The position numbers and the translations under genes were made by a program. Below, in pieces: positions 3,622 through 52,135 of a DNA stretch of 64,000 bases (positions are counted from its first letter, which is position 1; each line of letters starts with the position of its first letter). The notes under the pieces are model-generated. The model did no database searches and was not told the DNA's origin. It saw only the letters and a list, made by a program, of their open reading frames with translations. This stretch comes from a virus. Taxonomy: Duplodnaviria > Heunggongvirae > Uroviricota > Caudoviricetes. Location of the stretch: positions 35,384-99,383 of the IMG/VR virus record IMGVR_UViG_3300028888_000051. The stretch is one strand, 5' to 3'.

Positions 3622-4083
3622 TTACCTCATAGTATTTTCTATTAAAATTAAATTTTTCGTAATATCTAAATATCTAATATCTCGATCTACAAAAATAATT
3701 AAATTTTTTTGTGTAATATTACTAGCTCTTGGAAATAAAGCGGTATTAGCATCAAAATATTTTTTAAAAAATTCAATTAATACTTCTCTATATGATTTAT
3801 GCTTTTCTTTAATTATAGAAAAATAAATCAATGTAGCTAAATCATTTGAAATTTTAAATTCTATATACACAGGAAAAGAATTTTTCATAACTGTAAATAA
3901 TTTTTTATCAGAATATCTATTTTTATCATAATATTTACCGTATCTGCCATTTTTACATAAATAATTTTTGCTAAAATGCCAAATTTTATATTCTGGACAT
4001 ATTTTGGTTAACCATTTTATAAATTTATCACGCCTATTACCCTCTATAATTAACCAATGTGTTTTTCCAATTTCTTCTAACAT
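3622..4083 (-). CDS. Hypothetical phage protein
   Basis: Coupled ORF, 153 aa. Confidence 0.6.
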   Translation of the reverse strand: MLEEIGKTHWLIIEGNRRDKFIKWLTKICPEYKIWHFSKNYLCKNGRYGKYYDKNRYSDKKLFTVMKNSFPVYIEFKISNDLATLIYFSIIKEKHKSYREVLIEFFKKYFDANTALFPRASNITQKNLIIFVDRDIRYLDITKNLILIENTMR

Positions 4084-4829
4084 TTATTATTTTTCCTATA
4101 ACTATATGCATATTCTAAGGCTTCTTCAAGTGTATCATCAAAATATTTTTTTATATCTTTCGATGGCATAAAACTAAAAGCAGCATTTAAATAAAGACTA
4201 GTTAAATTTATATAAAGTTGAGATGCATTTTTACCTTGTTTATATAAATCATATGCATATTCTTTTTCTAATTTACATTTTTTCATAAGGTAAACAATAA
4301 ATAATTTATAGTCATTTGGTTTTAGATGACAGAAATATGTATGATCTTTTTTATCAATAAAATCATGTTTACTATAATTAGTTAAATTTACTTTATATAT
4401 TATTATTTCTTTATGTTGATTATCATATGTATTTTTTAATTGTTTAATTCTAGCTTTTCCTTCTTTTTGTCCACACGAAATAGCTGTTTTGACTATTCTT
4501 TTTAACCAATGGCTTTTTTCTTCATTATGATATTTAGTTTCTAAAATATCTTTTGATAAATTCTCTATATTAAACCAAACTGTATCAGCATATTGTTTAA
4601 ATATAGAAAAAGGATTATTATAATTTTTAAGTGAATTGTCTATATAATTACTAATTTCATTTTTTTCATACATATCTCTTTCTACAATCCAATCAAAGCA
4701 TATATCATTTAAATCTTTTCCAACTAAATTTTTTAAATAGACAAGATTAAAAAAGATAGTACGATAAGAAAAATAAATTTTATCGCCTTCATAAAAATTA
4801 ATAGTTATCATATCCTTTTCTTCAGTCAT
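4077..4829 (-). CDS. Hypothetical phage protein
   Basis: AAGGA SD, promoter at 4887; 250 aa. Confidence 0.7.
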   Translation of the reverse strand: MTEEKDMITINFYEGDKIYFSYRTIFFNLVYLKNLVGKDLNDICFDWIVERDMYEKNEISNYIDNSLKNYNNPFSIFKQYADTVWFNIENLSKDILETKYHNEEKSHWLKRIVKTAISCGQKEGKARIKQLKNTYDNQHKEIIIYKVNLTNYSKHDFIDKKDHTYFCHLKPNDYKLFIVYLMKKCKLEKEYAYDLYKQGKNASQLYINLTSLYLNAAFSFMPSKDIKKYFDDTLEEALEYAYSYRKNNKC

Positions 4830-35339: not shown

Positions 35340-35570
35340 TTAATTTTGATATTCATGTTTATCTACTAATAAGTAGTGAACTGCACCACTTACCATTGTT
35401 ACTTTGCGAAATCTATATCTGATATTATCATCATCGATAAAGACTTCTTTTTCAGATTCAATATGATTTTCATTAATAGTAATCTCACCAATCTCTTTAA
35501 GATATTTTGTTACTTTAATGTTATCAAAATCACATTCTAACTCAAAACCATACTCGGTATATTTAGCCAT
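35340..35570 (-). CDS. Hypothetical phage protein
   Basis: AAGGAG SD. Confidence 0.6.
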   Translation of the reverse strand: MAKYTEYGFELECDFDNIKVTKYLKEIGEITINENHIESEKEVFIDDDNIRYRFRKVTMVSGAVHYLLVDKHEYQN

Positions 35571-41589: not shown

Positions 41590-42472
41590 CAGGAAAGATA
41601 AAGTATTTTATAATTCTATCAAATATCCAATATAAACAATATCCACAAAAAGCAAATATTTTACTTATAATCAGTATATTCAATAAAGTAGTCCAACCTA
41701 GTGTTTCTAAAAAATTATTTTTACTTACAATATATACGAAATACTTTAACCATTTAATTGTATAATTAGTATTTTTCATAGCATTAGTTGGTTTTAATTT
41801 TTTTATTAATTTGTTACGTAAAATTAAAGGTAACGTTAGCAAATATACTAGCATTGTTCCAAAAAGTGATAAAATATTTCTATTCCAAATACTTTTTATA
41901 CAAGATTCGAATTTGTAATTCTGAAATTCTTCTAAAATTTTAAATATAGGTTCAGAATCAACATTTTTATAATATTGATTATCTTCATACCAATCAAAAG
42001 GAAAATCTTCATTATTAACTATTTCATCATCATATTTTTCTTCTTCTTTTTTAGCATTAACAAAGGCTGTTGTAAATTGACTAATTATACTATCAGTGAT
42101 ATTTAATTGGTTGAGTATAATATCAGTTAATTCATCTTTATTTAAATTTTTGTTTTTTAATTTATTATAGATATCATTTATTTGTACTGATATGTCATCA
42201 TCTATTGTTTCTGAATATTTAGCTGTCTTAGTTAAATTATCATAAACTAAACTAGATTTTATACCATGAGCCAAATCATATTCTTTTCTTTTAATTGGAT
42301 CAGATAATGTTTGATAAGCATTAGTAATTTCTTTAAATAAATTACCTGTTTTTGGATTTATATCTGGATGATATGTTTTAGCTAAAAAATAATAAGCACG
42401 TTTCAAATCCTCTTTTGATACGTCATAAGAAACTTCTAATATAGCATAGTAATCTTTAGCTTTTTTGACCAT
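41519..42472 (-). CDS. DnaJ (J-domain) protein with C-terminal hydrophobic helices
   Basis: DYYAILEV...LKRAY..LAK.YHPD.N...FKEITNAYQTLSDP..R.EYD. Confidence 0.85.
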   Translation of the reverse strand: MVKKAKDYYAILEVSYDVSKEDLKRAYYFLAKTYHPDINPKTGNLFKEITNAYQTLSDPIKRKEYDLAHGIKSSLVYDNLTKTAKYSETIDDDISVQINDIYNKLKNKNLNKDELTDIILNQLNITDSIISQFTTAFVNAKKEEEKYDDEIVNNEDFPFDWYEDNQYYKNVDSEPIFKILEEFQNYKFESCIKSIWNRNILSLFGTMLVYLLTLPLILRNKLIKKLKPTNAMKNTNYTIKWLKYFVYIVSKNNFLETLGWTTLLNILIISKIFAFCGYCLYWIFDRIIKYFIFPVAYAFRWIIVFFTILWLVSHFGG

Positions 42473-42548
42473 TTTTCTAATCCTTTCTTTAATTTACTAT
42501 ATATAATATATAATAAAATAGGAAAAAAGTAAAGCCGTTTAAAACGAT

Positions 42549-42638
42549 TGGGGAAAGGCCAGGAATCTCACCTGGGCAGTCAAAATATTGACAACATAAA
42601 TAAATTATGCTACTTTTGTTTATCTCAGTCACCTTTCC
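42549..42638 (-). ncRNA. Non-canonical tRNA-like RNA (long variable arm; loop ATTTATT)
   Basis: Acceptor GGAAAGG/CCTTTCC then CCA, T-arm CCAGG-TGAGATT-CCTGG, variable stem GTCAA/TTGAC. Confidence 0.55.
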
Positions 42639-42647
42639 ATAAAATAT

Positions 42648-42851
42648 TTATTTTTTTGATTTTTTTCTAATATAACTATCTATTGTAGAAGAAATTATAA
42701 AAATCCCAAAAATGATATCTATTGTTAGTAATGCATACATAATCCAGCCTGAAAAATTTAAAAAATCATATATACCTAAACCAACAAATATTAAAAAATA
42801 AAGTATTAATGTCAACACTAACATGATATTTTCCTTTCTAATTTTATACAA
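42648..42851 (-). CDS. Small two-TM membrane protein
   Basis: Two hydrophobic segments and a basic tail. Confidence 0.6.
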   Translation of the reverse strand: MYKIRKENIMLVLTLILYFLIFVGLGIYDFLNFSGWIMYALLTIDIIFGIFIISSTIDSYIRKKSKK

Positions 42852-42896
42852 TTTATAATATTATATAGCATATAATTTAAAAAGTAAAGTCATAAA

Positions 42897-42926
42897 ATAA
42901 AAAAGCTGGATTTTACGTATCCAGCT
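42897..42926 (-). terminator. Intrinsic terminator downstream of the tRNA region
   Basis: AGCTGGAT-ACGTAAA-ATCCAGCT-TTTTT on the minus strand. Confidence 0.75.
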
Positions 42927-43163
42927 AAAGTTTGTCTAACAACGAAGAGTTAAATAAATTTTTTATCGTTATATATATTTCGCATGCTATACTTTATATA
43001 TAACAATACCGATTCTCTTATACCGAACAGTTTTTTAGTGTAGCATAAAGCAATAAACTGTAAAACTAATTATTTTATTAAATAGCAAAAATAATCAAAA
43101 TGCTAATGGAATTTACCATCATAGTCGTTACTTTTGACAATGGGATACGACACCCCCAAAAAC

Positions 43164-43239
43164 TGGTGGAGAATAGGAGACTTGAACTCCTTACCTACTG
43201 AATGCAAATCAGTCGCTCTCCCAGATGAGCTAATTCCCC
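43164..43239 (-). tRNA. tRNA-Ala(TGC)
   Basis: Cloverleaf, G3:U70 pair, loop TT-TGC-AT, encoded CCA. Confidence 0.93.
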
Positions 43240-43726
43240 TCCAAATTAAAAATAACCAATTCTTTAAGCGTGTTAGGTATGCCGTCTTGATACTGACTAC
43301 TCCTTACATCATCATTCTTAGTTGTATGATGACAGCCTAATAATCTCATAATTGACATTTTGCACATAGAGGCATCTTGGTATTCCTTTTGCCAATACTG
43401 GCAACTTTATAATCTAGCTGAGAGACTCCTGACTACTCTCAAGTTATTAATAAGCGTATTATTCAGTCACTTCCGCGTAAATTAGCTATTTTTACGTTAT
43501 ATAGGAAGGTAGGATTGATTACCTACAAACGGATACAGATGTCAGTAATATTCAACTACGATTTGTCCGTTTCTTACGTCACTACAGGTTGGCCGACCTG
43601 CGCTATTTTAACCTTATACTTCTTATTACATCCAACCACAAATAAATCTTTTCAGAATTTATTTATGTACTCTTATTAGCCATCAACTAATTATTCGAGT
43701 AAAGCCTGATAATAATTAAAATAGAT

Positions 43727-43802
43727 TGGTAGCGGGGGTGGGAATTGCACACCACGACCTTCAGGTTATGAGCCTGACAAGCTACTACTGCTCTACCCCG
43801 CA
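43727..43802 (-). tRNA. tRNA-fMet(CAT), initiator-like
   Basis: TGCGGGG acceptor with a 1:72 mismatch, TCAGG-CTCATAA-CCTGA, CCA. Confidence 0.85.
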
Positions 43803-43884
43803 ACAAATAAGTAATTGTTTAGAACTATTTTATTTTTATTTAATTATAATATAATGGTAAAAATTTATTTGTAAAACCTTTTTA

Positions 43885-43960
43885 TGGGGTGATCGATGGG
43901 ACTTGAACCCATATCCTCCAGAACCACAATCTAGCGCTTTACCAATTAAGCTACGAACAC
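43885..43960 (-). tRNA. tRNA-His(GTG)
   Basis: Loop TT-GTG-GT, C73, CCA. Confidence 0.92.
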
Positions 43961-44004
43961 AAGAATAGACCAGATATACTGATATATACTTCTATTCGTA
44001 AAAT

Positions 44005-44078
44005 TGGCAAGGGTTGACTGAATCGAACAATCATCTTTACTTTTGGAGAGTAAGGTTTTACCATTAAACTAAACCCCT
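44005..44078 (-). tRNA. tRNA-Trp(CCA)
   Basis: TTACT-CTCCAAA-AGTAA, G73, CCA. Confidence 0.92.
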
Positions 44079-44083
44079 ATTTT

Positions 44084-44158
44084 TGGAGCGATTCATGAGA
44101 ATTGAACTCATATCTTTAGTTTGGAAGACTAACATAATAACCATTATACGAGAATCGC
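44084..44158 (-). tRNA. tRNA-Gly(TCC)
   Basis: GCG acceptor, loop CT-TCC-AA, U73, CCA. Confidence 0.93.
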
Positions 44159-44160
44159 AT

Positions 44161-44234
44161 TGGAGAACCGTAAGGGAGTCTAACCCCTCTAATTCGGGTT
44201 GCAGCCGAATGCATAAACGCTCTGCCAACGGTCC
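44161..44234 (-). tRNA. tRNA-Cys(GCA)
   Basis: TTCGG-CTGCAAC-CCGAA, U73, CCA. Confidence 0.9.
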
Positions 44235-44236
44235 AT

Positions 44237-44312
44237 TGGTGGCAACAACTTGACTTGAACAAGTAACTACATCCTTATGAGAGATGCTTTCTACCAATTG
44301 AAATATGTTGCC
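44237..44312 (-). tRNA. tRNA-Met(CAT), elongator-like
   Basis: GGC acceptor, loop CT-CAT-AA, A73; Ile2 not excluded. Confidence 0.8.
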
Positions 44313-44313
44313 A

Positions 44314-44389
44314 TGGTGTGTGCAGTAGGGCTCGAACCTACGACTCACGGCTTAAAAGGCCGTTACTCTACCAACTGAGTTATACACAC
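44314..44389 (-). tRNA. tRNA-Lys(TTT)
   Basis: ACGGC-CTTTTAA-GCCGT, CCA. Confidence 0.93.
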
Positions 44390-44391
44390 AT

Positions 44392-44467
44392 TGGTGGATC
44401 CTCAGAGAATCGAACTCCATCCTTCTGTTCTTCAGACAGACGTACGCACCAGCTATACCAAAGATCC
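44392..44467 (-). tRNA. tRNA-Phe(GAA)
   Basis: TCTGT-CTGAAGA-ACAGA, CCA. Confidence 0.92.
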
Positions 44468-44481
44468 AAATTTATAATAAT

Positions 44482-44514
44482 AAAAAAACCTCTGAACTTT
44501 TTATTTTCAGAGGT
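44482..44514 (-). terminator. Attenuator terminator upstream of the Phe-Lys-Met-Cys-Gly-Trp-His tRNA array
   Basis: ACCTCTGAA-AATAAAAAG-TTCAGAGGT-TTTTTT; the 5' arm can alternatively pair with GGAGGTA in the leader ORF. Confidence 0.85.
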
Positions 44515-44552
44515 ATGCCTTTAATCTTAATTTTATTTATTAATAAGGTTAA

Positions 44553-44627
44553 TTAAACATTACCTCCGCTAGTTTTACCGGCGAAGCCAAACATATGCCA
44601 ACATTTTTTAACCATATTAATCATCAT
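44553..44627 (-). CDS. Putative attenuator leader peptide 1: MMINMVKKCWHMFGFAGKTSGGNV
   Basis: ATG 4 nt after GTTCTATA; core KKCWHMFGF covers all 7 amino acids of the downstream tRNAs. Confidence 0.8.
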   Translation of the reverse strand: MMINMVKKCWHMFGFAGKTSGGNV

Positions 44628-44812
44628 ATTATATAGAACCTTTCTTTATTTTATATTTTATATATAATTTAAATTTTTTTATTTGTAAAACTGTTTTAAA
44701 TAAGAAATAATATTAAATTGAAAAACTTTACGTATTTTTCTTGAGTACTTCCCAACAACGGTTAACACTTAAAGGAGTTAAAGTCAGCATTATATTGGAA
44801 GTAATTGTATTA

Positions 44813-45106
44813 TTAATAACACAAATCAGAATTTGTACAAGAATTATATGGCTTACGACTATATGATACTTCTTCATATGTCTTAGGCTCATATACTGTT
44901 GTGTATGTAATATCTTTATAAATTACTTCTACAGGTTTTGAAACTGTATAAGATGTAGAACAAGTATTACATTCATTATAATAAGATACATTATGTGTTA
45001 CAACTGGTTTGGTTTCTTGTACTTTTTGTACAGGCTGAATTTCTTCTGTTTCACAACATGTACAACCACTTAATAACATTAAACTCAATATTAAAAATTT
45101 TTTCAT
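44813..45106 (-). CDS. Putative lipoprotein
   Basis: MKKFLILSLMLLSGC lipobox; GGAGG SD. Confidence 0.75.
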   Translation of the reverse strand: MKKFLILSLMLLSGCTCCETEEIQPVQKVQETKPVVTHNVSYYNECNTCSTSYTVSKPVEVIYKDITYTTVYEPKTYEEVSYSRKPYNSCTNSDLCY

Positions 45107-45166
45107 TTTATTCCCTCCAAAAAGGCATCAATATTTTTAAAACAATTGTTATATAACAAGAACTTT

Positions 45167-45388
45167 TTATTTTGTAAAACCTTTATTATTTTCATAATCT
45201 AAAAAATTATTTATTGAATTATATGTCATATTTATTAATGTACTACTAGATTCTTCATTAAATTTATTTTTACCATCATAAAAATTTAACATATATAGTA
45301 ATTGACAAAAATTCATATTTGGATATTTTTTGACATAGTATTCTAAAGTTTTTAGAATTTCTTCATTGTATTCTAATTTTGATTTCAT
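45167..45388 (-). CDS. Hypothetical protein; paralog of the N-terminus of 52137-52601
   Basis: KKYPNMNFCQLL vs KKYPELRFQQLL; F.EES..T vs FYENS..T. Confidence 0.6.
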   Translation of the reverse strand: MKSKLEYNEEILKTLEYYVKKYPNMNFCQLLYMLNFYDGKNKFNEESSSTLINMTYNSINNFLDYENNKGFTK

Positions 45389-45417
45389 ATTAAAATATTC
45401 CTTTCTTTTATAGTAGA

Positions 45418-45612
45418 TTATTTAAGTACTAACATACAATTTTTAATATTTAAATAATCTACTATATCTTTTTTCCAATTAAACTTTTTAAACTTCTTCT
45501 TTTTGTTTGGTATAATTTTTGTTCTTAACATACCGCTTTGCCACATATTCATCAATTGTAAATTACGAATTTTTGGCTTTTTTAATTTAATAGTTATAAT
45601 TTCTTTTTTCAT
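45418..45612 (-). CDS. Small basic protein
   Basis: AGGAG SD; Lys-rich. Confidence 0.55.
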   Translation of the reverse strand: MKKEIITIKLKKPKIRNLQLMNMWQSGMLRTKIIPNKKKKFKKFNWKKDIVDYLNIKNCMLVLK

Positions 45613-45634
45613 AAATTTTCTCCTAATAAAAAAT

Positions 45635-45727
45635 TGGCGGATACTGTAGGGCTCGAACCTACGCGAGATGTTACCATCCCCTAACGGTTTAGCAAACCGT
45701 CCTCTTCACCAACTTGAGTAAGTATCC
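45635..45727 (-). tRNA. tRNA-Ser(GCT)
   Basis: ACGGT-TTGCTAA-ACCGT, long variable arm, G73, CCA. Confidence 0.92.
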
Positions 45728-45757
45728 AAAAAAGGAGGAAATTAATCCTCCATAAAA

Positions 45758-46063
45758 TTATTTTTTCTTTTTAAATTTAGATTTAATCCAATTATATAAA
45801 CAAACTAAACTTTTCCAAATCATTTTTAATGTCGACGTAATAAAATCAATTAAAAAAGATTTGATAATTTTATATAAGCCACTAAAAATTGCTTTTAACC
45901 AAGCCCACAAAGCTTTTAAAAAAGACACAATAGGTTCTTTAATTAAATGCCAAGAAGTTGAAAATAAACTTCTTATTGCTTTCCAAGCTTCAGTAGAAAA
46001 AGATTTTAAACTTTTCCACCACTCTTTTATAATTTCTTTAAATGTCATTTGAGTTATCTCCAT
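45758..46063 (-). CDS. Amphipathic Trp/Lys-rich helical repeat protein
   Basis: W..(L/I)K.. repeats with about 11-residue periodicity. Confidence 0.55.
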   Translation of the reverse strand: MEITQMTFKEIIKEWWKSLKSFSTEAWKAIRSLFSTSWHLIKEPIVSFLKALWAWLKAIFSGLYKIIKSFLIDFITSTLKMIWKSLVCLYNWIKSKFKKKK

Positions 46064-46074
46064 AAATTACATAT

Positions 46075-46177
46075 TGGTGGGAAGTTGTGGAATCGAACCA
46101 TCCGTCTCTTTAACTAGTACTTACGAGGACAAGGGTACTAGTCCTTGTCATAGTCTCCATAGCTATATAAGCTTCCC
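46075..46177 (-). ncRNA. tRNA-like RNA with a pseudoknot in place of the anticodon arm
   Basis: GGGAAG/CTTCCC-A-CCA acceptor, TGG-TTCGATT-CCA T-arm; interlocked GACAAGG/CCTTGTC and ACTAGTAC/GTACTAGT stems. Confidence 0.6.
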
Positions 46178-46439
46178 TTAAATGATTGATTATTACTTTA
46201 TTTGTCGTGAAAGCGTTAGGCAAGGTTAGGTCAACAAAGTCTTTCGGTTATCACAGCTTCCCTAAGAAAATTCCTATTAGCCTTTTCGATGGTTGCCTCT
46301 ATCATCTGTGTATTAGATTTACATAATCAATCTTCTGCACGACCAGAATAATTTTACTCCCATTATTAAAATACTGGTGGTTAATTCCACGAACAGAGAA
46401 TTGTGCTGTGTTAAACCTGAAGCCTCTGGAGTTCAATAT

Positions 46440-46667
46440 TTATTTTTGTAAATAATTTATAATATCTTTAACAGTTATAAATTTTTCCATTGCTGCATCT
46501 GGAATATCTTTTCCAAAGTTTTCTTCTAATAAAACAGTAATTTCTACTAAATCGAGACTATCCATATATAAATCATCTGATAATTTTGAATTTTCAGTTA
46601 TAGTTTCTTTTGAAATTCCTAAATTTTCAGACAAGATAGACTTAACTTTTTCTAGAGTTTTATCCAT
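46440..46667 (-). CDS. acpP: Acyl carrier protein
   Basis: DDLYMDSLDLVEI...LEE.FG..IPD...EK..TV.DII.Y with the phosphopantetheine Ser. Confidence 0.9.
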   Translation of the reverse strand: MDKTLEKVKSILSENLGISKETITENSKLSDDLYMDSLDLVEITVLLEENFGKDIPDAAMEKFITVKDIINYLQK

Positions 46668-46676
46668 GTTATACCT

Positions 46677-46871
46677 TTATTTTTTCTTTTTCTTTGTTTC
46701 AATTACAACAGATGTTTCTTTTTTTGGACCTTTTGTATTACATTTTGGAGCTTTACCAATATTTGGATTTAATTTATTATTATAAATAATAGGACTTAAC
46801 TTTAAATATTTTCCCCATTTCTTTTTAAATTGTTGTTCTTCGAAATTCTTCTTTTTTTCTTCATCTGTCAT
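46677..46871 (-). CDS. Small basic hypothetical protein
   Basis: AAGGAGG SD. Confidence 0.6.
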   Translation of the reverse strand: MTDEEKKKNFEEQQFKKKWGKYLKLSPIIYNNKLNPNIGKAPKCNTKGPKKETSVVIETKKKKK

Positions 46872-46886
46872 AATTATCCTCCTTAA

Positions 46887-47261
46887 TTAATGTGAAAAAT
46901 TTTTAAAATGTTGTTTTGTTTGTATAAATATATTATTATCCATACTTTTTGCTTTTTCTTCAGCTAATCTGTCATAATAAGCATATCTATCTTTCGTTAA
47001 TGGATAATAATATAATGCTTTCGAATCTAAAATAACATATTTTTTAATTTCTTGCTCTGATTTATTTGCATATACATCACATAGCATATCAAAAAACTGT
47101 TGCTGTAACTCTTCATCTTGCATAGACTTTTTATAATATCGTGACATTTTATGAGCTTCTAATGCAATATTAGCTTGAGTTTCTATAGCTCTTTGTTTAT
47201 CACCAGACAATTTAATAAATTTAGACTCCTTTTTTAAAAATGAAAAATGTCTATAATTCAT
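46887..47261 (-). CDS. Hypothetical phage protein
   Basis: GTTCTAA motif upstream (47309-47315). Confidence 0.65.
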   Translation of the reverse strand: MNYRHFSFLKKESKFIKLSGDKQRAIETQANIALEAHKMSRYYKKSMQDEELQQQFFDMLCDVYANKSEQEIKKYVILDSKALYYYPLTKDRYAYYDRLAEEKAKSMDNNIFIQTKQHFKNFSH

Positions 47262-47441
47262 TTTAATTGTATCCTATAAAAATTTATAAAATTAATCAAA
47301 CATTATCATTAGAACTAAAATATCATTTGTCCATTTTAAAAATAAGACCTAGGAATTTTTAAAACTCTATGTCATTTCATAGGACAGATCATAACATTAC
47401 TAAGATGTCATAGGATTACTGGGACAATTCTTTATATAAAT

Positions 47442-47517
47442 TGGCTAGGGAAGGTGGGATCGAACCACCAGTCTTCCGAGTCAAAGTCGGAAATTTTACC
47501 AATTAAACTATTCCCTA
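47442..47517 (-). tRNA. tRNA-Gln(TTG)
   Basis: U1:A72, loop CT-TTG-AC, G73, CCA. Confidence 0.92.
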
Positions 47518-47578
47518 AATAAAAAAAAAGAAGGGAACAGGGACCATATGATGTAATCTCAGTGTATTGTTCCCATAA

Positions 47579-47710
47579 TGACAGTTGGAGGAGGAGTCGA
47601 ACCTCACACTATATAACTTTGCAGAGCTATATATTTCCCTCTACTTCCCGTTTTCTTAATCAAACTTTCTTACTGCAATAGTACTTATTTGACATAGTAG
47701 AGCCCCAACC
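47579..47710 (-). ncRNA. tRNA-like RNA with a greatly expanded D-arm
   Basis: GGTTGGG/TCCAACT acceptor, GAGG-TTCGACT-CCTC T-arm, CTCTACT...AGTAGAG closing a long insert, stem with loop CTGCAA; 3' end TCA. Confidence 0.5.
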
Positions 47711-47792
47711 ATAAAAATAGTGACTTTTTGATCATATAGTTTATCACTATTGAACCTAAACGGAGAAGTCACTAAAGAAACTCCCTAAAACT

Positions 47793-47886
47793 TGGCACCT
47801 CGTAAACTGATTCGAACAGCATTCCCGTACTAATTGACTGGAGCTATAGACTATTCAATTAGCGGTCACCATGACTACAACGAGGT
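47793..47886 (-). ncRNA. tRNA-like RNA with an extended anticodon arm
   Basis: ACCTCGT/ACGAGGT-G-CCA, D-arm GTC-ATGGT-GAC, 9-bp stem with a 17-nt loop, T-loop TTCGAAT. Confidence 0.6.
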
Positions 47887-47891
47887 ATAAT

Positions 47892-47970
47892 TGGCGCCCT
47901 CACATGATTTTCACACGTTATCTTGGACCTACATCCTAAGCTATCTATTCGCGACTAGATATAACAGGGC
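47892..47970 (-). ncRNA. Degenerate tRNA-like RNA
   Basis: GCCCT/AGGGC-G-CCA with three internal hairpins in cloverleaf order and non-canonical loops. Confidence 0.45.
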
Positions 47971-48191
47971 ATAAAAATGTCACCAGTTTTTACCCTTTAT
48001 CCACTCACTGTTCGAACATCTTAGTGTTGGAGGATCAAGTTACCATTTTCGACAGCACATAGTTACTTAGGCGATCAATTCTAAGTACTAACAACTGATA
48101 AACTTGTCTAATTATATAAACATCAACTTAATACTTATTCAGCGTACTTTCATATTAAATTGTACTAGTCTATATAATCATGAATTAGAAT

Positions 48192-48277
48192 TGGTGGAAG
48201 GTGATAGAGTCGCACTACCCGAGCCCGAAGGCAACAGATTTACAGTCTGTCCCGCTACTCCTACGGTATAACCTTCC
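48192..48277 (-). tRNA. tRNA-Tyr(GTA)
   Basis: ACAGA-CTGTAAA-TCTGT, variable arm, A73, CCA. Confidence 0.92.
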
Positions 48278-48538
48278 ATAAAAAACAACAGTCTTAACGT
48301 AACTGTTATGATGGGTAAAACGAAATAATATCAAGATATCTACTATATGTGCACCTATTAAATATCTTACTAGTCATTATTTTAACTAACTTTATCTCAA
48401 GTAATAAAGCATACAATAGCATTAACGATTCTATTAAACGGAAAGGGTTTTTTCTCTAAATCCTTTCGAAACGGAAACCGTTTTTACCGAGGTAGGTTTC
48501 ATACCTATTCTACAAAAAATCCTTTAAAATCAAAGACT

Positions 48539-48616
48539 TGGTCGGGGCGAGAGGATTCTAACCTCCGACATCTTGCTCCCAAAGCAAGCGCTCTAAACAG
48601 GCTGAGCTACGCCCCG
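48539..48616 (-). tRNA. tRNA-Pro(TGG)
   Basis: CGG acceptor start, loop TT-TGG-GA, CCA. Confidence 0.93.
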
Positions 48617-48796
48617 AATAAACGATTGAAATTTTACTCATTAAAATCTTTTTGTAAAGAGTTGCCAATGTTTTCAATTTTCGGAAACATTAAAAGGAAG
48701 TCATTATATGCAGTTTTATCATCGGGGTTGTATATAATACTCGTAACAACTCTTTGCAAAAGGACTCTAATCAAATATTCATCCTACTAGAAAAAT

Positions 48797-48872
48797 TGGT
48801 CCACTGGCTTGGACTTGAACCAAGAATAGAGGTTTATAAGACCCCCGTTATAACCACTTTAACTACCTGTGG
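48797..48872 (-). tRNA. tRNA-Ile(TAT)
   Basis: GGGGT-CTTATAA-ACCTC, A73, CCA. Confidence 0.85.
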
Positions 48873-48876
48873 ATAT

Positions 48877-48951
48877 TGGTGATCCCAGCGGTATTCGAAA
48901 CCACATTACCAGAATGAAAATCTGATGTCCTAACCATTAGACGATGGGACC
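48877..48951 (-). tRNA. tRNA-Glu(TTC)
   Basis: TCAGA-TTTTCAT-TCTGG, CCA. Confidence 0.9.
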
Positions 48952-49057
48952 TCGAAAAAGTTTTATATTAGCATACCTACTACACAATCATAATGCTAAT
49001 AAAGGTATATAGTTTATTAGATAGTAGGTTCCATAAACCAAACTTTTTAACCTTAAA

Positions 49058-49136
49058 TGGCGGTGCTTACGGGGCTCGAACCCGTGAATCTTCGCCGTGA
49101 CAGGGCGATGTCCTAGACCAACTGAACGAAAGCACC
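49058..49136 (-). tRNA. tRNA-Asp(GTC)
   Basis: TCGCC-CTGTCAC-GGCGA, G73, CCA. Confidence 0.93.
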
Positions 49137-49141
49137 TTAAT

Positions 49142-49228
49142 TGGTGCGCTAGACCAGAGTCGAACTGGTACGCCATTACTGGCAACAGATTTTAAGTCTG
49201 CAGCGTCTACCTATTCCGCCACAAGCGC
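49142..49228 (-). tRNA. tRNA-Leu(TAA)
   Basis: GCAGA-CTTAAAA-TCTGT, variable arm, A73, CCA. Confidence 0.93.
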
Positions 49229-49236
49229 ATAAATTA

Positions 49237-49599
49237 TTATAAATTATTTCGTATTTTATGGTGTAATTCTCTATGACAATTTGCACATAACATAATACAT
49301 TTATCTAATTCTTTTTTAATTTTTTCAAAAGATTTTGTACTTCCATCTCCTCCAATTCCAAAATCTTTTTCTTCAGGATTTAAATGATGAAATTCTAAAG
49401 CATCTATACAGGTATCATAACCACAAATTTCACATTTGCCACCTTTATATTCAACAGCTTTTTTCTTTAATACTTGTCTTCTTTTTATAACAGCTTCAGA
49501 TCCACATTTTTTACAACGCCATCTTTTTTCTGAATCTCTAAGTACAAAATCTGTTAAACCATGTTTATTGCATATTCTTTTTTCAATTTTAGATACCAT
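49237..49599 (-). CDS. HNH endonuclease inserted in the tRNA array
   Basis: YKGGKCEICGY...ALEFHH..P..KDF...ELDKCIMLCANCHRELH. Confidence 0.85.
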   Translation of the reverse strand: MVSKIEKRICNKHGLTDFVLRDSEKRWRCKKCGSEAVIKRRQVLKKKAVEYKGGKCEICGYDTCIDALEFHHLNPEEKDFGIGGDGSTKSFEKIKKELDKCIMLCANCHRELHHKIRNNL

Positions 49600-49618
49600 A
49601 TAAATAATCCTTTAAATT

Positions 49619-49694
49619 TGGCTGGCCCGGAGGGTCACGATCCCCCGACATCGAAATTAACAGTTTCGCGTTCTTCCAACTGAACTACGGGCCA
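49619..49694 (-). tRNA. tRNA-Asn(GTT)
   Basis: CGAAA-CTGTTAA-TTTCG, G73, CCA. Confidence 0.9.
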
Positions 49695-49700
49695 ATATAA

Positions 49701-49776
49701 TGGTGCCGACGGAGAGACTTGAACTCCCGACCCACTGATTACAAATCAGTAGCTCTACCAACTGAGCTACGTCGGC
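49701..49776 (-). tRNA. tRNA-Thr(TGT)
   Basis: GCC acceptor, loop TT-TGT-AA, CCA. Confidence 0.94.
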
Positions 49777-49832
49777 TTTAAGGCTACCTTCTATTTAACC
49801 TTGAAAGGTAGTAGCAAGGTGTTAAAGATAGT

Positions 49833-49913
49833 TTGGAATGTGGAAGCGAATCCATCTTCCTTTTTGTACCCTAGGCCTGACCGATATACACTTTACAATG
49901 TATAACATCCCAA
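49833..49913 (-). ncRNA. Candidate structured RNA, copy A of a two-copy motif
   Basis: TTGGGATGTTATA...GGTCAGGCC...GGTACAAAA...ACATTCCAA. Confidence 0.45.
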
Positions 49914-50033
49914 GACTTGTAGTTTTCATAACGGTCCATTTAGAGATTCTACTGAGCACTGTCCGTTATGGGAATCTGCTTTGTTAAGGAGCTCTAAATC
50001 TCTTAACTGCAGTTACTACAACCCTCTCAGCAG

Positions 50034-50438
50034 CTAATCCTTAATATTTACTAACTCATAAACATTGATTGGATATTTCCTTTGTTCACAAGCAGCAATT
50101 TTATAAATTCTATGTTTATCTATACCTAAGATATATTTTACAATTCTACCGATATCTTTACCAGCTTCGGCTTCTGGGTTATTAATGTTTCTTTTTAGAT
50201 GGTACTGATATACATAATCTAATGGTGTATAAGACCAATCTCTGAATCTACCACCAACAATATCAGAAGTAGTGAATTGTTTTTTATAAGTCAAAGCTCC
50301 TTGAATCATACCATTTATAAAAGTGGTCAATTCAGCTTGTTGCATATAAGATAGTGATTCAAAAGCACTCGACTTTTGTGTATTAGAATTGATAATCATA
50401 GCTCTTTTCCTTTCATGTATGATTATAATGTTAAACAA
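50034..50438 (-). CDS. Hypothetical phage protein
   Basis: GAAAGGA SD before MIINSN; F...DIVGG...DW..TPL. Confidence 0.65.
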   Translation of the reverse strand: MFNIIIIHERKRAMIINSNTQKSSAFESLSYMQQAELTTFINGMIQGALTYKKQFTTSDIVGGRFRDWSYTPLDYVYQYHLKRNINNPEAEAGKDIGRIVKYILGIDKHRIYKIAACEQRKYPINVYELVNIKD

Positions 50439-50492
50439 AATTTATTAAATGAGAAATAAATTATTTAATGACTCCTATTTCAAAAAGTCAGT

Positions 50493-50569
50493 TGGCAGAC
50501 CGTACAGGACTCAAACCTGTGACACCAAGCTTAGAAGGCTTGTGCTCTTTTCAACTGAGCTAACGGTCT
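50493..50569 (-). tRNA. tRNA-Arg(TCT)
   Basis: CAAGC-CTTCTAA-GCTTG, CCA. Confidence 0.92.
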
Positions 50570-50580
50570 ATAAAAAATGT

Positions 50581-50699
50581 TTTGGGATAGGTAGTGGTAC
50601 ACATCTACGTACGTGACTCTTTTGTGCCTGAAAGACTTACGGTATAAAACCTACTAGTTCGGTCTGACCATCATAGCATTACTGATATGACATCCCAAA
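50581..50699 (-). ncRNA. Candidate structured RNA, copy B of a two-copy motif
   Basis: TTGGGATGTCATA...GGTCAGACC...GGCACAAAA...ATCCCAAA. Confidence 0.45.
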
Positions 50700-50719
50700 A
50701 AAATTTTGTAGCTTTTTAT

Positions 50720-50806
50720 TGGCGGAAGATTGAGGTGTCGATCCCCATACCTCTCGGTACTCACTGTTTTCAAGACAGGATTCTAGGCCGCTAGAATTAA
50801 TCTTCC
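50720..50806 (-). tRNA. tRNA-Ser(TGA) with an extended D-stem
   Basis: Loop CT-TGA-AA, variable arm, G73, CCA; D-stem ATTCTAG-CGGC-CTAGAAT. Confidence 0.85.
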
Positions 50807-50965
50807 ATAAATTGTACAGGATTAACTATCAAAACAATAAGACGCTCTTCTGATTAAGCTAATCCTGTATATTTAATATTATTTCTTATTCACAATGTCT
50901 TTATAACTCTTACGAAAAACAAAATTATATATAGCGTATAATTTTTTATTTGTAAAGCTGTTTAT

Positions 50966-51000
50966 AAAAAACCCGCTAATTTTTTATTTTTAGCGGGTTT
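50966..51000 (-). terminator. Attenuator terminator upstream of the Ser-Arg-Thr-Asn-Leu-Asp-Glu-Ile-Pro-Tyr-Gln tRNA array
   Basis: AAACCCGCTAA-AAATAAAAAA-TTAGCGGGTTT-TTT; the 5' arm can alternatively pair with GGGTTTAGTTTTA at the leader stop. Confidence 0.85.
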
Positions 51001-51031
51001 AATCTTATTTTTATGATAATTTTGAGTAAAA

Positions 51032-51100
51032 CTAAACCCTCAGCCTAACTATTCTAGGTTGATTATATGAATTTAAGTATGTTTCTATCATTATCATCAT
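51032..51100 (-). CDS. Putative attenuator leader peptide 2: MMIMIETYLNSYNQPRIVRLRV
   Basis: ATG 5 nt after GTTCTATA; 13 consecutive codons (IETYLNSYNQPRI) all correspond to downstream tRNAs. Confidence 0.8.
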   Translation of the reverse strand: MMIMIETYLNSYNQPRIVRLRV

Positions 51101-51121
51101 GTTTTTATAGAACTATTTAAT

Positions 51122-52135
51122 TTATCTAAAATCATCAATTATTTCTGATAATGCTTCAATTAAATCTTCTGCTTCTTCTAAACCAATTGATAATCTAAAA
51201 AAATTTGTATTTTCGAAACCTGTAATTACACTAAAATTTACTCCAAAAGTATCTGCTTTTTGAAAAAGCTTAACTTTTTTTATTGTTTCTATCTTTTGTA
51301 TACTTTTTATTGATTCAATAAGTATTATTCCAGTTTCAGTTATCGAATAATAATTTATATTTTCTTGTTTTAAATATTTACAGATTTTTTCAGTTGTATC
51401 TTTTATTTTATTTAATCTTAGTCTTAATGTTTGTAAACCTAAAATAGTAAAATAACAATCAATTGGATGTGGATAAAAACTAAAAATTTTAGATATATCT
51501 TTCATTTTGGAAAATTTATCTTTTGTTTTTTCGTTAGTCATTAATACACCTAACATAGAAGTATTATATCCACAACTACATTTACTTAAACTTTCAATAA
51601 CAAAATCTACATTATACTCAAATGGATTAAATACTAAACCTGTATAACATGAATTATCTACTAATACATATGCTCCAATAGAATGAGCTTTTTCAACTAA
51701 ATTTTTTATATATTCTTTGTTATCTATACAATATGGAATACTACACGATTCTAAACATATTATATCATTTTTAGATATTTTATTTAAATCTGTTAATTCT
51801 ATAGCTTTGCCTTTAAGATTATATGCATCTATCATTTCAGGATATGTATTTTGCAAATAATAAATTTTATTAAACTCATCTGAAATACTAATTAATGTTG
51901 CAGAGGCAACTCCACTATTCAAAACCAAAATTTCTTTTATGTCTCTATTATATATTTTACTTACTATTGTAGCTAAAGCTAACCTGTTGTTAATAGAATC
52001 ACCACGTTTATACTTAAAAAATCTACCATGTTTGATATCTAATTCATCTGAAAAAGAATTGTTTAAATCAATTGTATTTGGTTTAATAATATCTTTATAT
52101 ACATCAGGACTAATTAATAAAGTATCTTTTTTCAT
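51122..52135 (-). CDS. PLP-dependent Cys/Met metabolism enzyme (cystathionine gamma-lyase/synthase family)
   Basis: NSGVAS, LES..IP, VLVDNS...FNPF....DFVIESLSK (PLP Lys), GLQTLRLR, FRLSIGLE..EDLI. Confidence 0.8.
   Translation of the reverse strand: MKKDTLLISPDVYKDIIKPNTIDLNNSFSDELDIKHGRFFKYKRGDSINNRLALATIVSKIYNRDIKEILVLNSGVASATLISISDEFNKIYYLQNTYPEMIDAYNLKGKAIELTDLNKISKNDIICLESCSIPYCIDNKEYIKNLVEKAHSIGAYVLVDNSCYTGLVFNPFEYNVDFVIESLSKCSCGYNTSMLGVLMTNEKTKDKFSKMKDISKIFSFYPHPIDCYFTILGLQTLRLRLNKIKDTTEKICKYLKQENINYYSITETGIILIESIKSIQKIETIKKVKLFQKADTFGVNFSVITGFENTNFFRLSIGLEEAEDLIEALSEIIDDFR

Follow-up and report, generated by a model that had tools for sequence, protein, structure and literature searches.

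The phage element described here, leader L1, lies on the minus strand of a stretch of 64,000 nucleotides (nt), called the window (positions 35,384 to 99,383 of IMG/VR record IMGVR_UViG_3300028888_000051), and precedes an operon of seven transfer RNA (tRNA) genes, array 1. L1 is read here as a ribosome-mediated leader-peptide transcription attenuator, which utilizes a peptide listing many amino acids (a roster) to gate the Phe-Lys-Met-Cys-Gly-Trp-His tRNA operon; from sequence and predicted folds, a probability of about 0.78 is given to this reading. The phage would thus probably make the array-1 tRNAs only when ribosomes read the roster codons slowly. The mechanism class itself is classical, and what is new is attenuation aimed at tRNA genes with a roster of one codon of each kind. 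The original prediction had proposed the same leader-peptide attenuator, and support for it comes from the architecture, the conservation, the pairing of the antiterminator and the covariation in a paralogous module, L2, situated ahead of a second tRNA array. The window is part of a single virus record of 227,383 bp with 26.6% G+C.

The leader open reading frame (ORF) and its nine codons AAA AAA TGT TGG CAT ATG TTT GGC TTC (codons 7–15), on which the original prediction was built, are both present in the window. The ATG lies 34 nt past the -10 hexamer, AAAGG is located 11 nt upstream of the ATG, and the ORF is predicted to be translated. Codons 8–14 (KCWHMFG, 44606-44586) name each of the seven tRNA identities of array 1, which contains no protein gene, exactly once; ARAGORN agrees with the earlier assignment of all seven same-strand tRNAs. 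No other such run of residues exists among the 454,762 six-frame seven-codon windows of the 227-kb genome, and the expectation from six-frame residue frequencies is 0.037 genome-wide and 2.5e-5 in the 300 nt upstream of the array. Furthermore, the L1 roster codons map to array-1 tRNAs in every phage compared.

Table 1. Coordinates of the two leader modules and of the tRNA arrays that follow them, in window positions
Feature	Position	Strand	Description	Basis
Sigma-70-like promoter	44661..44689	minus	TTTACA (44689-44684), 17 nt, TATATA (44666-44661)	read directly; function putative
Shine-Dalgarno (SD)-like sequence and adjoining motif	44632..44647	minus	AAAGAAAGG, 11 nt before ATG; GTTCTATA (44639-44632), 4 nt before ATG	
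Leader ORF L1	44627->44553	minus	MMINMVKKCWHMFGFAGKTSGGNV, 24 codons and TAA	read directly; kept in 7 phage contigs
Roster codons 7-18	44574..44609	minus	K K C W H M F G F A G K	
Region 1	44581..44586	minus	CTTCGC, codons 14-16; candidate anti-antiterminator or pause hairpin with GCGGAG of region 2	
Region 2	44561..44568	minus	CGGAGGTA, codons 20-23; 5' strand of the antiterminator	
Antiterminator hairpin of L1	44508..44568	minus	61 nt: region 2, spacer hairpin, region 3	
Intrinsic terminator of L1	44482..44514	minus	ACCTCTGAA (44514-44506), 9-nt loop, TTCAGAGGT (44496-44488), six T after the closing T of the stem (44487-44482)	
tRNA array 1	44467->43885	minus	Phe(GAA) Lys(UUU) Met(CAU) Cys(GCA) Gly(UCC) Trp(CCA) His(GUG), in this order	ARAGORN and Rfam tRNA matches
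Module L2	50966..51113	minus	GTTCTATA 51113-51106; ORF 51100-51032 (MMIMIETYLNSYNQPRIVRLRV); region 2 TGAGGGTTT 51042-51034; precedes array 2	
Terminator of L2		minus	AAACCCGCTAA (51000-50990) / TTAGCGGGTTT (50979-50969)	
tRNA array 2	50806->45635	minus	Ser(UGA), Arg(UCU), Thr(UGU), Asn, Leu(UAA), Asp, Glu, Ile(UAU), Pro, Tyr, Gln, Ser(GCU)	

The end of the ORF and the terminator behind it share a pairing partner, region 3, which is the 5' arm of the terminator. The terminator itself was found as described in the original prediction (stem 44514-44488 and T tract to 44482), with a 9-bp stem of -11.4 kcal/mol, and the terminators of all 13 elements are canonical, consisting of a GC-rich stem followed by 4–7 U. 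The proposed pairing of GGAGGTA-ATGTTTAAT with ATTAAAGGCAT-ACCTCT proved to be the minimum-energy fold of its segment, at -15.8 kcal/mol (z = -4.4), and none of 300 shuffles is as stable. One long hairpin running from region 2 to region 3 exists in all 13 elements despite unalignable spacers, with z-scores from -1.7 to -5.2; among the L1 homologs, the antiterminators range from -12.5 to -22 kcal/mol against -11.4 to -14.1 for the terminators. The sequence CGGAGGT (codons 20–22) is invariant in 7/7 homologs, including the third positions of GGA GGT, and can pair with ACCTC(C/T)G of the terminator 5' arm in 49/49 alignment cells, compared with 29–51% in slid controls. A C-to-T change in the 5' arm of the window's terminator is offset in the 3' arm, which gives the one compensatory pair (C-G to U-A) among the terminators of the L1 homologs, and is still G-U pairable with region 2. 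Simultaneously, the in-frame stop codon lies within or immediately before region 2, so that a terminating ribosome would occlude this region, except in contig L041, in which a +1 insertion shifts the stop downstream. A further hairpin between regions 1 and 2 (CUUCGC/GCGGAG) is part of the minimum-energy fold of the free RNA and has 6 bp in the window's clade.

Relatives were found with exact and degenerate DNA patterns, which located the L1 module in six additional contigs, all different from one another (L046, L001 (= G001), L042, L041, L002 (= G002) and L013 (= G003)) and the L2 module in five relatives (G001, G002, G003, G004 and L041). The neighboring pyridoxal-phosphate (PLP)-enzyme gene, used as a query, gave no relatives, and a gene of 124 amino acids (aa) gave only a contig already known; two looser DNA patterns (the 3' part of L2 and region 2 of L1) gave, beyond the known family, only chance matches among the matches listed. 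The L1 homologs are related by descent, and their conservation is therefore not fully independent. Across the seven homologs, all four variable codons among codons 6–18 (VKKCWHMFGFAGK) are synonymous (AAA/AAG, CAT/CAC, GGC/GGA, GCC/GCT/GCA), whereas in codons 3–5, 19–20 and 23–24 the variable codons are non-synonymous in seven of seven cases. Such a synonymous-only core indicates that the frame is real and that purifying selection acts on the decoded tRNA identities or on the peptide core. The order (Ala)-Phe-Lys-Met-Cys-Gly-Trp-His of array 1 is common to all relatives, and in most of them tRNA-Ala comes first, which explains the Ala codon GCC/GCA at L1 codon 16; in the window, tRNA-Ala is situated farther downstream (43239-43164). 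In addition, the Gly codon corresponds to the Gly anticodon of the array in the relatives, with GGC accompanying Gly(GCC) in L046 and G001, and GGA accompanying Gly(UCC) in G002, G003 and L041. This correspondence may be a single co-change and is thus suggestive only.

Module L2 has the same layout in front of array 2, with GTTCTATA, 5 nt, ATGATG, a 22-codon ORF, a spacer containing AAGATTAAA, and a terminator. Its codons 3–17, Met left out, are ATA GAA ACA TAC TTA AAT TCA TAT AAT CAA CCT AGA ATA; all of them are read by array-2 tRNAs, and Asp is the only array-2 identity that is not listed. The sensing interval of L1 contains nine array-1 and two array-2 codons and that of L2 none and 14, respectively (Fisher p = 2.7e-5). 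Taken alone, L2 is less extreme, since 14 of 454,690 thirteen-codon genome windows are equally roster-like. Among the six phages with L2, the terminator stem comes in three unrelated versions, and region 2 matches the stem in each of them; pairing in the antiterminator is 98%, both partners having changed in two pairs, and pairing in the terminator is 100%, with compensatory changes in four of six pairs. The L2 peptides vary freely in sequence but remain roster-like. The Val codon GTA is found only where tRNA-Val(UAC) is present (G001, G002 and G004), and the Arg codon AGA only where tRNA-Arg(UCU) is present; the converse of these two rules is not always true. In L034 (G002) and L041, a tRNA with a CAU anticodon (4569-4645 and 3934-4011, respectively) occupies the slot of the window's tRNA-Ile(UAU), and the L2 leaders of both phages retain the ATA codon; this tRNA is probably a lysidine-type tRNA-Ile2. 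Meanwhile, the conserved sequence GTTATAAAGACATTGTGAATAAGAAA, located at about 50913-50885 in the window and also in L018, L019, L020 and L032, is situated past both the terminator and the promoter of L2 and ahead of the first tRNA in five phages, and could be a processing site or a promoter.

The effect of a translating ribosome was modeled in eight elements by masking its footprint, both in the full-length RNA and in RNA truncated before the terminator 3' arm (region 4). In the truncated RNA, region 3 of L1 is paired when the ribosomal A site is at codons 1–16 and is released from codon 17 to the stop, and region 3 of the window's L2 is paired with the A site at codons 1–17. The pairing drops at the last codons of the ORF in seven of the eight elements, the exception being L1 of L013, in which it is down at codons 17–22 and returns to 0.55 at the stop. 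In both leaders, the roster codons occupy the positions at which a ribosome would leave region 2 uncovered, and the codons after them make up region 2. With full-length RNA at equilibrium, the terminator has a probability of about 0.95 at any ribosome position in six of the eight elements, those without such dominance being L018 and L019. A purely thermodynamic switch was rejected for this reason, and the switch must be kinetic, as in trp. The fold with a masked ribosome, which the original prediction had put forward as a check, therefore bears out the release of the arm on truncated RNA, but not a choice by ribosome position on full-length RNA, in which the terminator wins regardless.

Around the leaders, two kinds of putative transcription start signal are found. 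The TTTACAAATAA-N-TATATA unit of the sigma-70-like promoter has further copies within the tRNA region (50956 and 43875) and ahead of the homologous leaders. The motif GTTCTAWW lies 4–5 nt ahead of every L1 and L2 leader ATG and has 88 copies genome-wide (in the window, for example, at 44639, 51113 and 43825); 29 of the 88 precede an ORF of at least 100 aa by 17–69 nt, where 3.4 would be expected, which is an 8.6-fold enrichment. GTTCTAWW is probably a phage-specific promoter, possibly of the late class, and transcripts starting there could be leaderless because only 4–5 nt separate it from the leader ATG. An SD-like AGG/GGAG exists directly 5' of GTTCTAWW exactly where a sigma-70-like promoter lies upstream. 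The pattern of GTTCTAWW, 3–6 nt and an ATG ORF of 12–40 codons matches only L1 and L2 in the 13–20-kb tRNA region of each phage, each at the head of a tRNA block. Other GTTCTAWW sites with short ORFs (genome positions 193722 and 110654) have neither a terminator nor a roster and were rejected as attenuators. Between the T tract of L1 and tRNA-Phe, which starts at 44467, there are 15–20 nt, and the sole -10-like hexamer there would initiate inside the tRNA. Since this leaves no room for a working promoter before tRNA-Phe in the window, array 1 must be read through the terminator.

In the proposed mechanism, the TTTACA/TATATA promoter, and probably GTTCTATA as well, would initiate transcription, and a ribosome would translate the 24-codon leader while RNA polymerase heads for the terminator. 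If the roster codons 7–16 (K K C W H M F G F A) are read promptly, the ribosome would reach codons 17–25 and cover CGGAGGTA, the terminator hairpin would form, and transcription would end before tRNA-Phe. If any matching charged tRNA is scarce, the ribosome would stall within codons 7–16 and leave region 2 free; in a kinetic competition, region 2 and the terminator 5' arm would then form the 61-nt antiterminator, and the polymerase would enter the seven tRNA genes. The new tRNAs would lift the stall, constituting a negative feedback on the tRNA pool. L2 would act likewise on transcripts entering the larger array 2. Candidate triggers of such stalling are a mismatch in codon usage, decay of host tRNAs and cleavage of host tRNAs by defence nucleases.

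Several observations weigh against attenuation by L1, beginning with the dominance of the terminator at full-length equilibrium described above. The L1 antiterminator contains one-sided compatible changes and no double compensatory change, which follows from the invariance of region 2, and a composition-preserving shuffle test of mean region-3 pairing is not significant for the window's L1 (31/200), while being significant or borderline for most other elements. The hairpin between regions 1 and 2 is only partly conserved, with 4–5 bp in L041, G002 and G003 (alignment A2), and alternative 5' pairings appear in G002 and G003. The Lys codons 7–8 are situated so far upstream that a stall there leaves region 1 unmasked. 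The window is the sole mismatch between Gly codon and anticodon, since its GGC is not cognate to its own Gly(UCC); the original prediction had already raised this caveat, which is borne out, and in the closest relatives GGC is paired with Gly(GCC) arrays, in the more distant ones GGA with Gly(UCC) arrays. The strict conservation of the L1 peptide core fits a functional peptide as well. Furthermore, in the relatives of L1 the terminator is followed by a conserved TATGTATATATTA, a possible constitutive extended -10 promoter that has no counterpart in the window's L1, and a TTTACA promoter follows the L2 terminator in four of five phages. With possible promoters downstream of the terminators, the attenuator may gate only part of the transcription, and attenuated and unattenuated inputs may coexist. 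Finally, a plain terminator, GGAGGATTAATTTCCTCC with T6 (45751-45734), closes a 101-aa ORF and adjoins tRNA-Ser(GCU) at 45727 without a leader ORF, so that a terminator ahead of a tRNA is not unique to the leader modules; this tRNA-Ser(GCU) seems to depend on read-through.

Some of these points would suit a different role for the ORF, namely that L1 is the gene of a functional peptide of 24 residues and has a promoter and a terminator of its own, the tRNAs being made through leaky read-through or from other promoters and the roster match being incidental. The core VKKCWHMFGFAGK, invariant in amino acids with synonymous changes only, is what such a peptide would show, and the possible extended -10 after the terminator in relatives and the leaderless terminator adjoining tRNA-Ser point in the same direction. 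However, a functional peptide leaves unexplained why its residues are an exact permutation of the array identities, why a second, unrelated-looking peptide lists the other array while its sequence varies freely from phage to phage, and why the 3' end of each ORF has a conserved or covarying pairing with its own terminator; moreover, the window has no space for a working promoter before tRNA-Phe. A functional peptide is for these reasons considered unlikely.

A second explanation retains the leader as a sensor of decoding speed and places its output in RNA processing or stability (RNase access, 3'-end protection or a pause for tRNA processing) instead of termination. The terminator hairpin, which forms in most states at equilibrium, lies directly against the tRNA 5' end, the site of the RNase P cut, and constitutive promoters exist downstream of the L2 terminator, all of which would agree with such an output. 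Nevertheless, the hairpins are canonical intrinsic terminators throughout the 13 elements, mutually exclusive pairing that involves the 5' arm is the hallmark of control by termination, and no separate processing motif was identified, which makes a processing output decidedly improbable. A chance origin of the small ORF and its complementarity in the AT-rich spacer between promoter and terminator, with retention through common descent only, is hardly credible: short ORFs are plentiful in AT-rich DNA, the homologs are related and the region-3 shuffle test of L1 is weak, but against chance stand the local roster expectation of 2.5e-5, the synonymous-only core between non-synonymous flanks, the covariation in the paralogous L2 and the antiterminator z-scores of the 13 elements.

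Among the phage genes of the surrounding genome are those for a gp23 capsid protein of the T4 type and for a DnaB-like helicase. Under the standard genetic code, ORFs of at least 100 aa already make 84% of the record coding, and an alternative code was therefore dropped. Every tRNA gene of the record is located on the minus strand at window positions 43164-50806, 18 of them detected by default ARAGORN and three more through Rfam or a lowered threshold, namely Ser(UGA) at 50806-50720, Tyr(GUA) at 48276-48192 and a tRNA with a CAU anticodon at 43801-43731. All three are divergent, and the last has its own TTTACA and GTTCTAAA motifs. A doubtful call of an 89-nt 'tRNA-Stop(UUA)' at 42638-42550 appears only at the lowered ARAGORN threshold. 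The tRNA region also contains an HNH endonuclease gene (49599-49237), flanked by tRNA-Asn and tRNA-Leu, as well as an acyl-carrier-protein-like gene (PP-binding; 46667-46440). Three ORF-free stretches of this region (46075-46183, 47520-48190 and 49780-50040), labeled non-canonical tRNA-like RNAs in the original prediction, contain tRNA-like 3' halves (T-arm, acceptor strand and CCA) and have neither a canonical cloverleaf nor an Rfam match.

Another ORF-free stretch of about 270 nt (43424-43696, minus strand), flanked by the CAU tRNA and tRNA-Ala, shares about 70% identity with L048:1501-1771 from Prevotella Lak megaphage tRNA regions. One of its hairpins looks compensatory (CAGGT..ACCTG versus CACAGTT..AACTGTG); it has no Rfam match, and its fold z-score is only -0.65. 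The stretch may represent an undescribed structured RNA common to distant large phages. The Lak megaphage tRNA region containing it has an HNH gene and no leader module.

Among known systems, the closest resemblance is to the leaders of amino-acid operons. Multivalent enterobacterial leaders are those of ilvGMEDA and ilvBN, with Ile, Leu and Val codons, and of thr, with Thr and Ile codons; trpL, hisL and pheL belong to the same kind. L1 resembles them in its short leader ORF, in candidate regulatory codons that would respond to the supply of charged tRNA and in an antiterminator that overlaps the 3' end of the ORF and is an alternative to an intrinsic terminator; a ribosome at the stop favors termination and a stalled ribosome favors read-through, as is predicted here. 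For the known leaders it is established that the stability of the terminator does not fall below that of the antiterminator and that control is therefore kinetic; the same would apply to L1. Significant differences exist in the targets, which are phage-encoded tRNA genes instead of biosynthetic enzymes, and in the codons, since L1 lists 7–8 amino acids mostly once each (L2 at least 12), matching the operon, whereas the known leaders repeat one to three. To our knowledge, all described leader-peptide attenuators control genes for amino-acid biosynthesis or aminoacyl-tRNA synthetases, and the seven tRNAs downstream of L1 are outside this class. The pheL leader attenuator is treated in PMC3082878. 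The E. coli pheST attenuator with its pheM leader, which depends on tRNA(Phe) (Fayat 1983, Springer 1985 and Mechulam 1987, as cited in PMC4082710), is a leader-peptide attenuator of a translation-apparatus gene as well, but senses one amino acid, controls a synthetase instead of tRNAs and is chromosomal. T-box riboswitches likewise control translation-related genes by a choice between terminator and antiterminator that reports the state of a specific tRNA; in contrast to L1, in which the ORF is the sensor, they bind the uncharged tRNA through a specifier codon and the T-box sequence, without translation. An Rfam scan of 42000-52000 (E <= 0.1) contained no T-box (RF00230) and no Trp, His, Leu or Thr leader; its matches were tRNAs and one weak Plastid-ycf2 on the opposite strand, at 28 bits, far below its cut-off.

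Published accounts assign two roles to phage tRNAs, namely compensation of codon usage and making up for host tRNAs that decay or defence nucleases have removed (PMC11025619, PMC11555353 and PMC11464382). The arrangement in the window is similar to the tRNA clusters of T4-like and jumbo phages, in that its tRNA genes are clustered and the genome is T4-like (gp23 capsid), but differs in the demand-dependent transcriptional control proposed for them, which is not described in these three papers; the terms attenuation and promoters gave no match in a term search of the opinion paper on phage tRNAs, PMC11025619. Full-text literature searches returned no account of tRNA genes controlled by a leader peptide, whether in phages or elsewhere, and none of demand-dependent control of phage tRNA genes.

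For large phages in general, a surveillance of the tRNA pool can be envisaged, with even odds, in which roster leaders switch tRNA operons on when any cognate host tRNA becomes limiting and thereby replace the depleted species, a system that would be widespread in jumbo phages. If so, the limiting causes would be a mismatch in codon usage, tRNA decay induced by infection, or cleavage by host anticodon nucleases. The roster leader peptide would be a compact sensor of the decoding capacity of the cell, reading many codons at once and feeding back on tRNA transcription, and as an engineering part it would be a natural multi-tRNA sensor. Classical attenuation would be extended to new target genes, the tRNAs, and to a new logic utilizing one codon of each kind instead of runs. 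Meanwhile, such leaders would offer a direct way to learn at what time and for what reason a phage needs its tRNAs, and would make the sensing of tRNA-cleaving defences testable.

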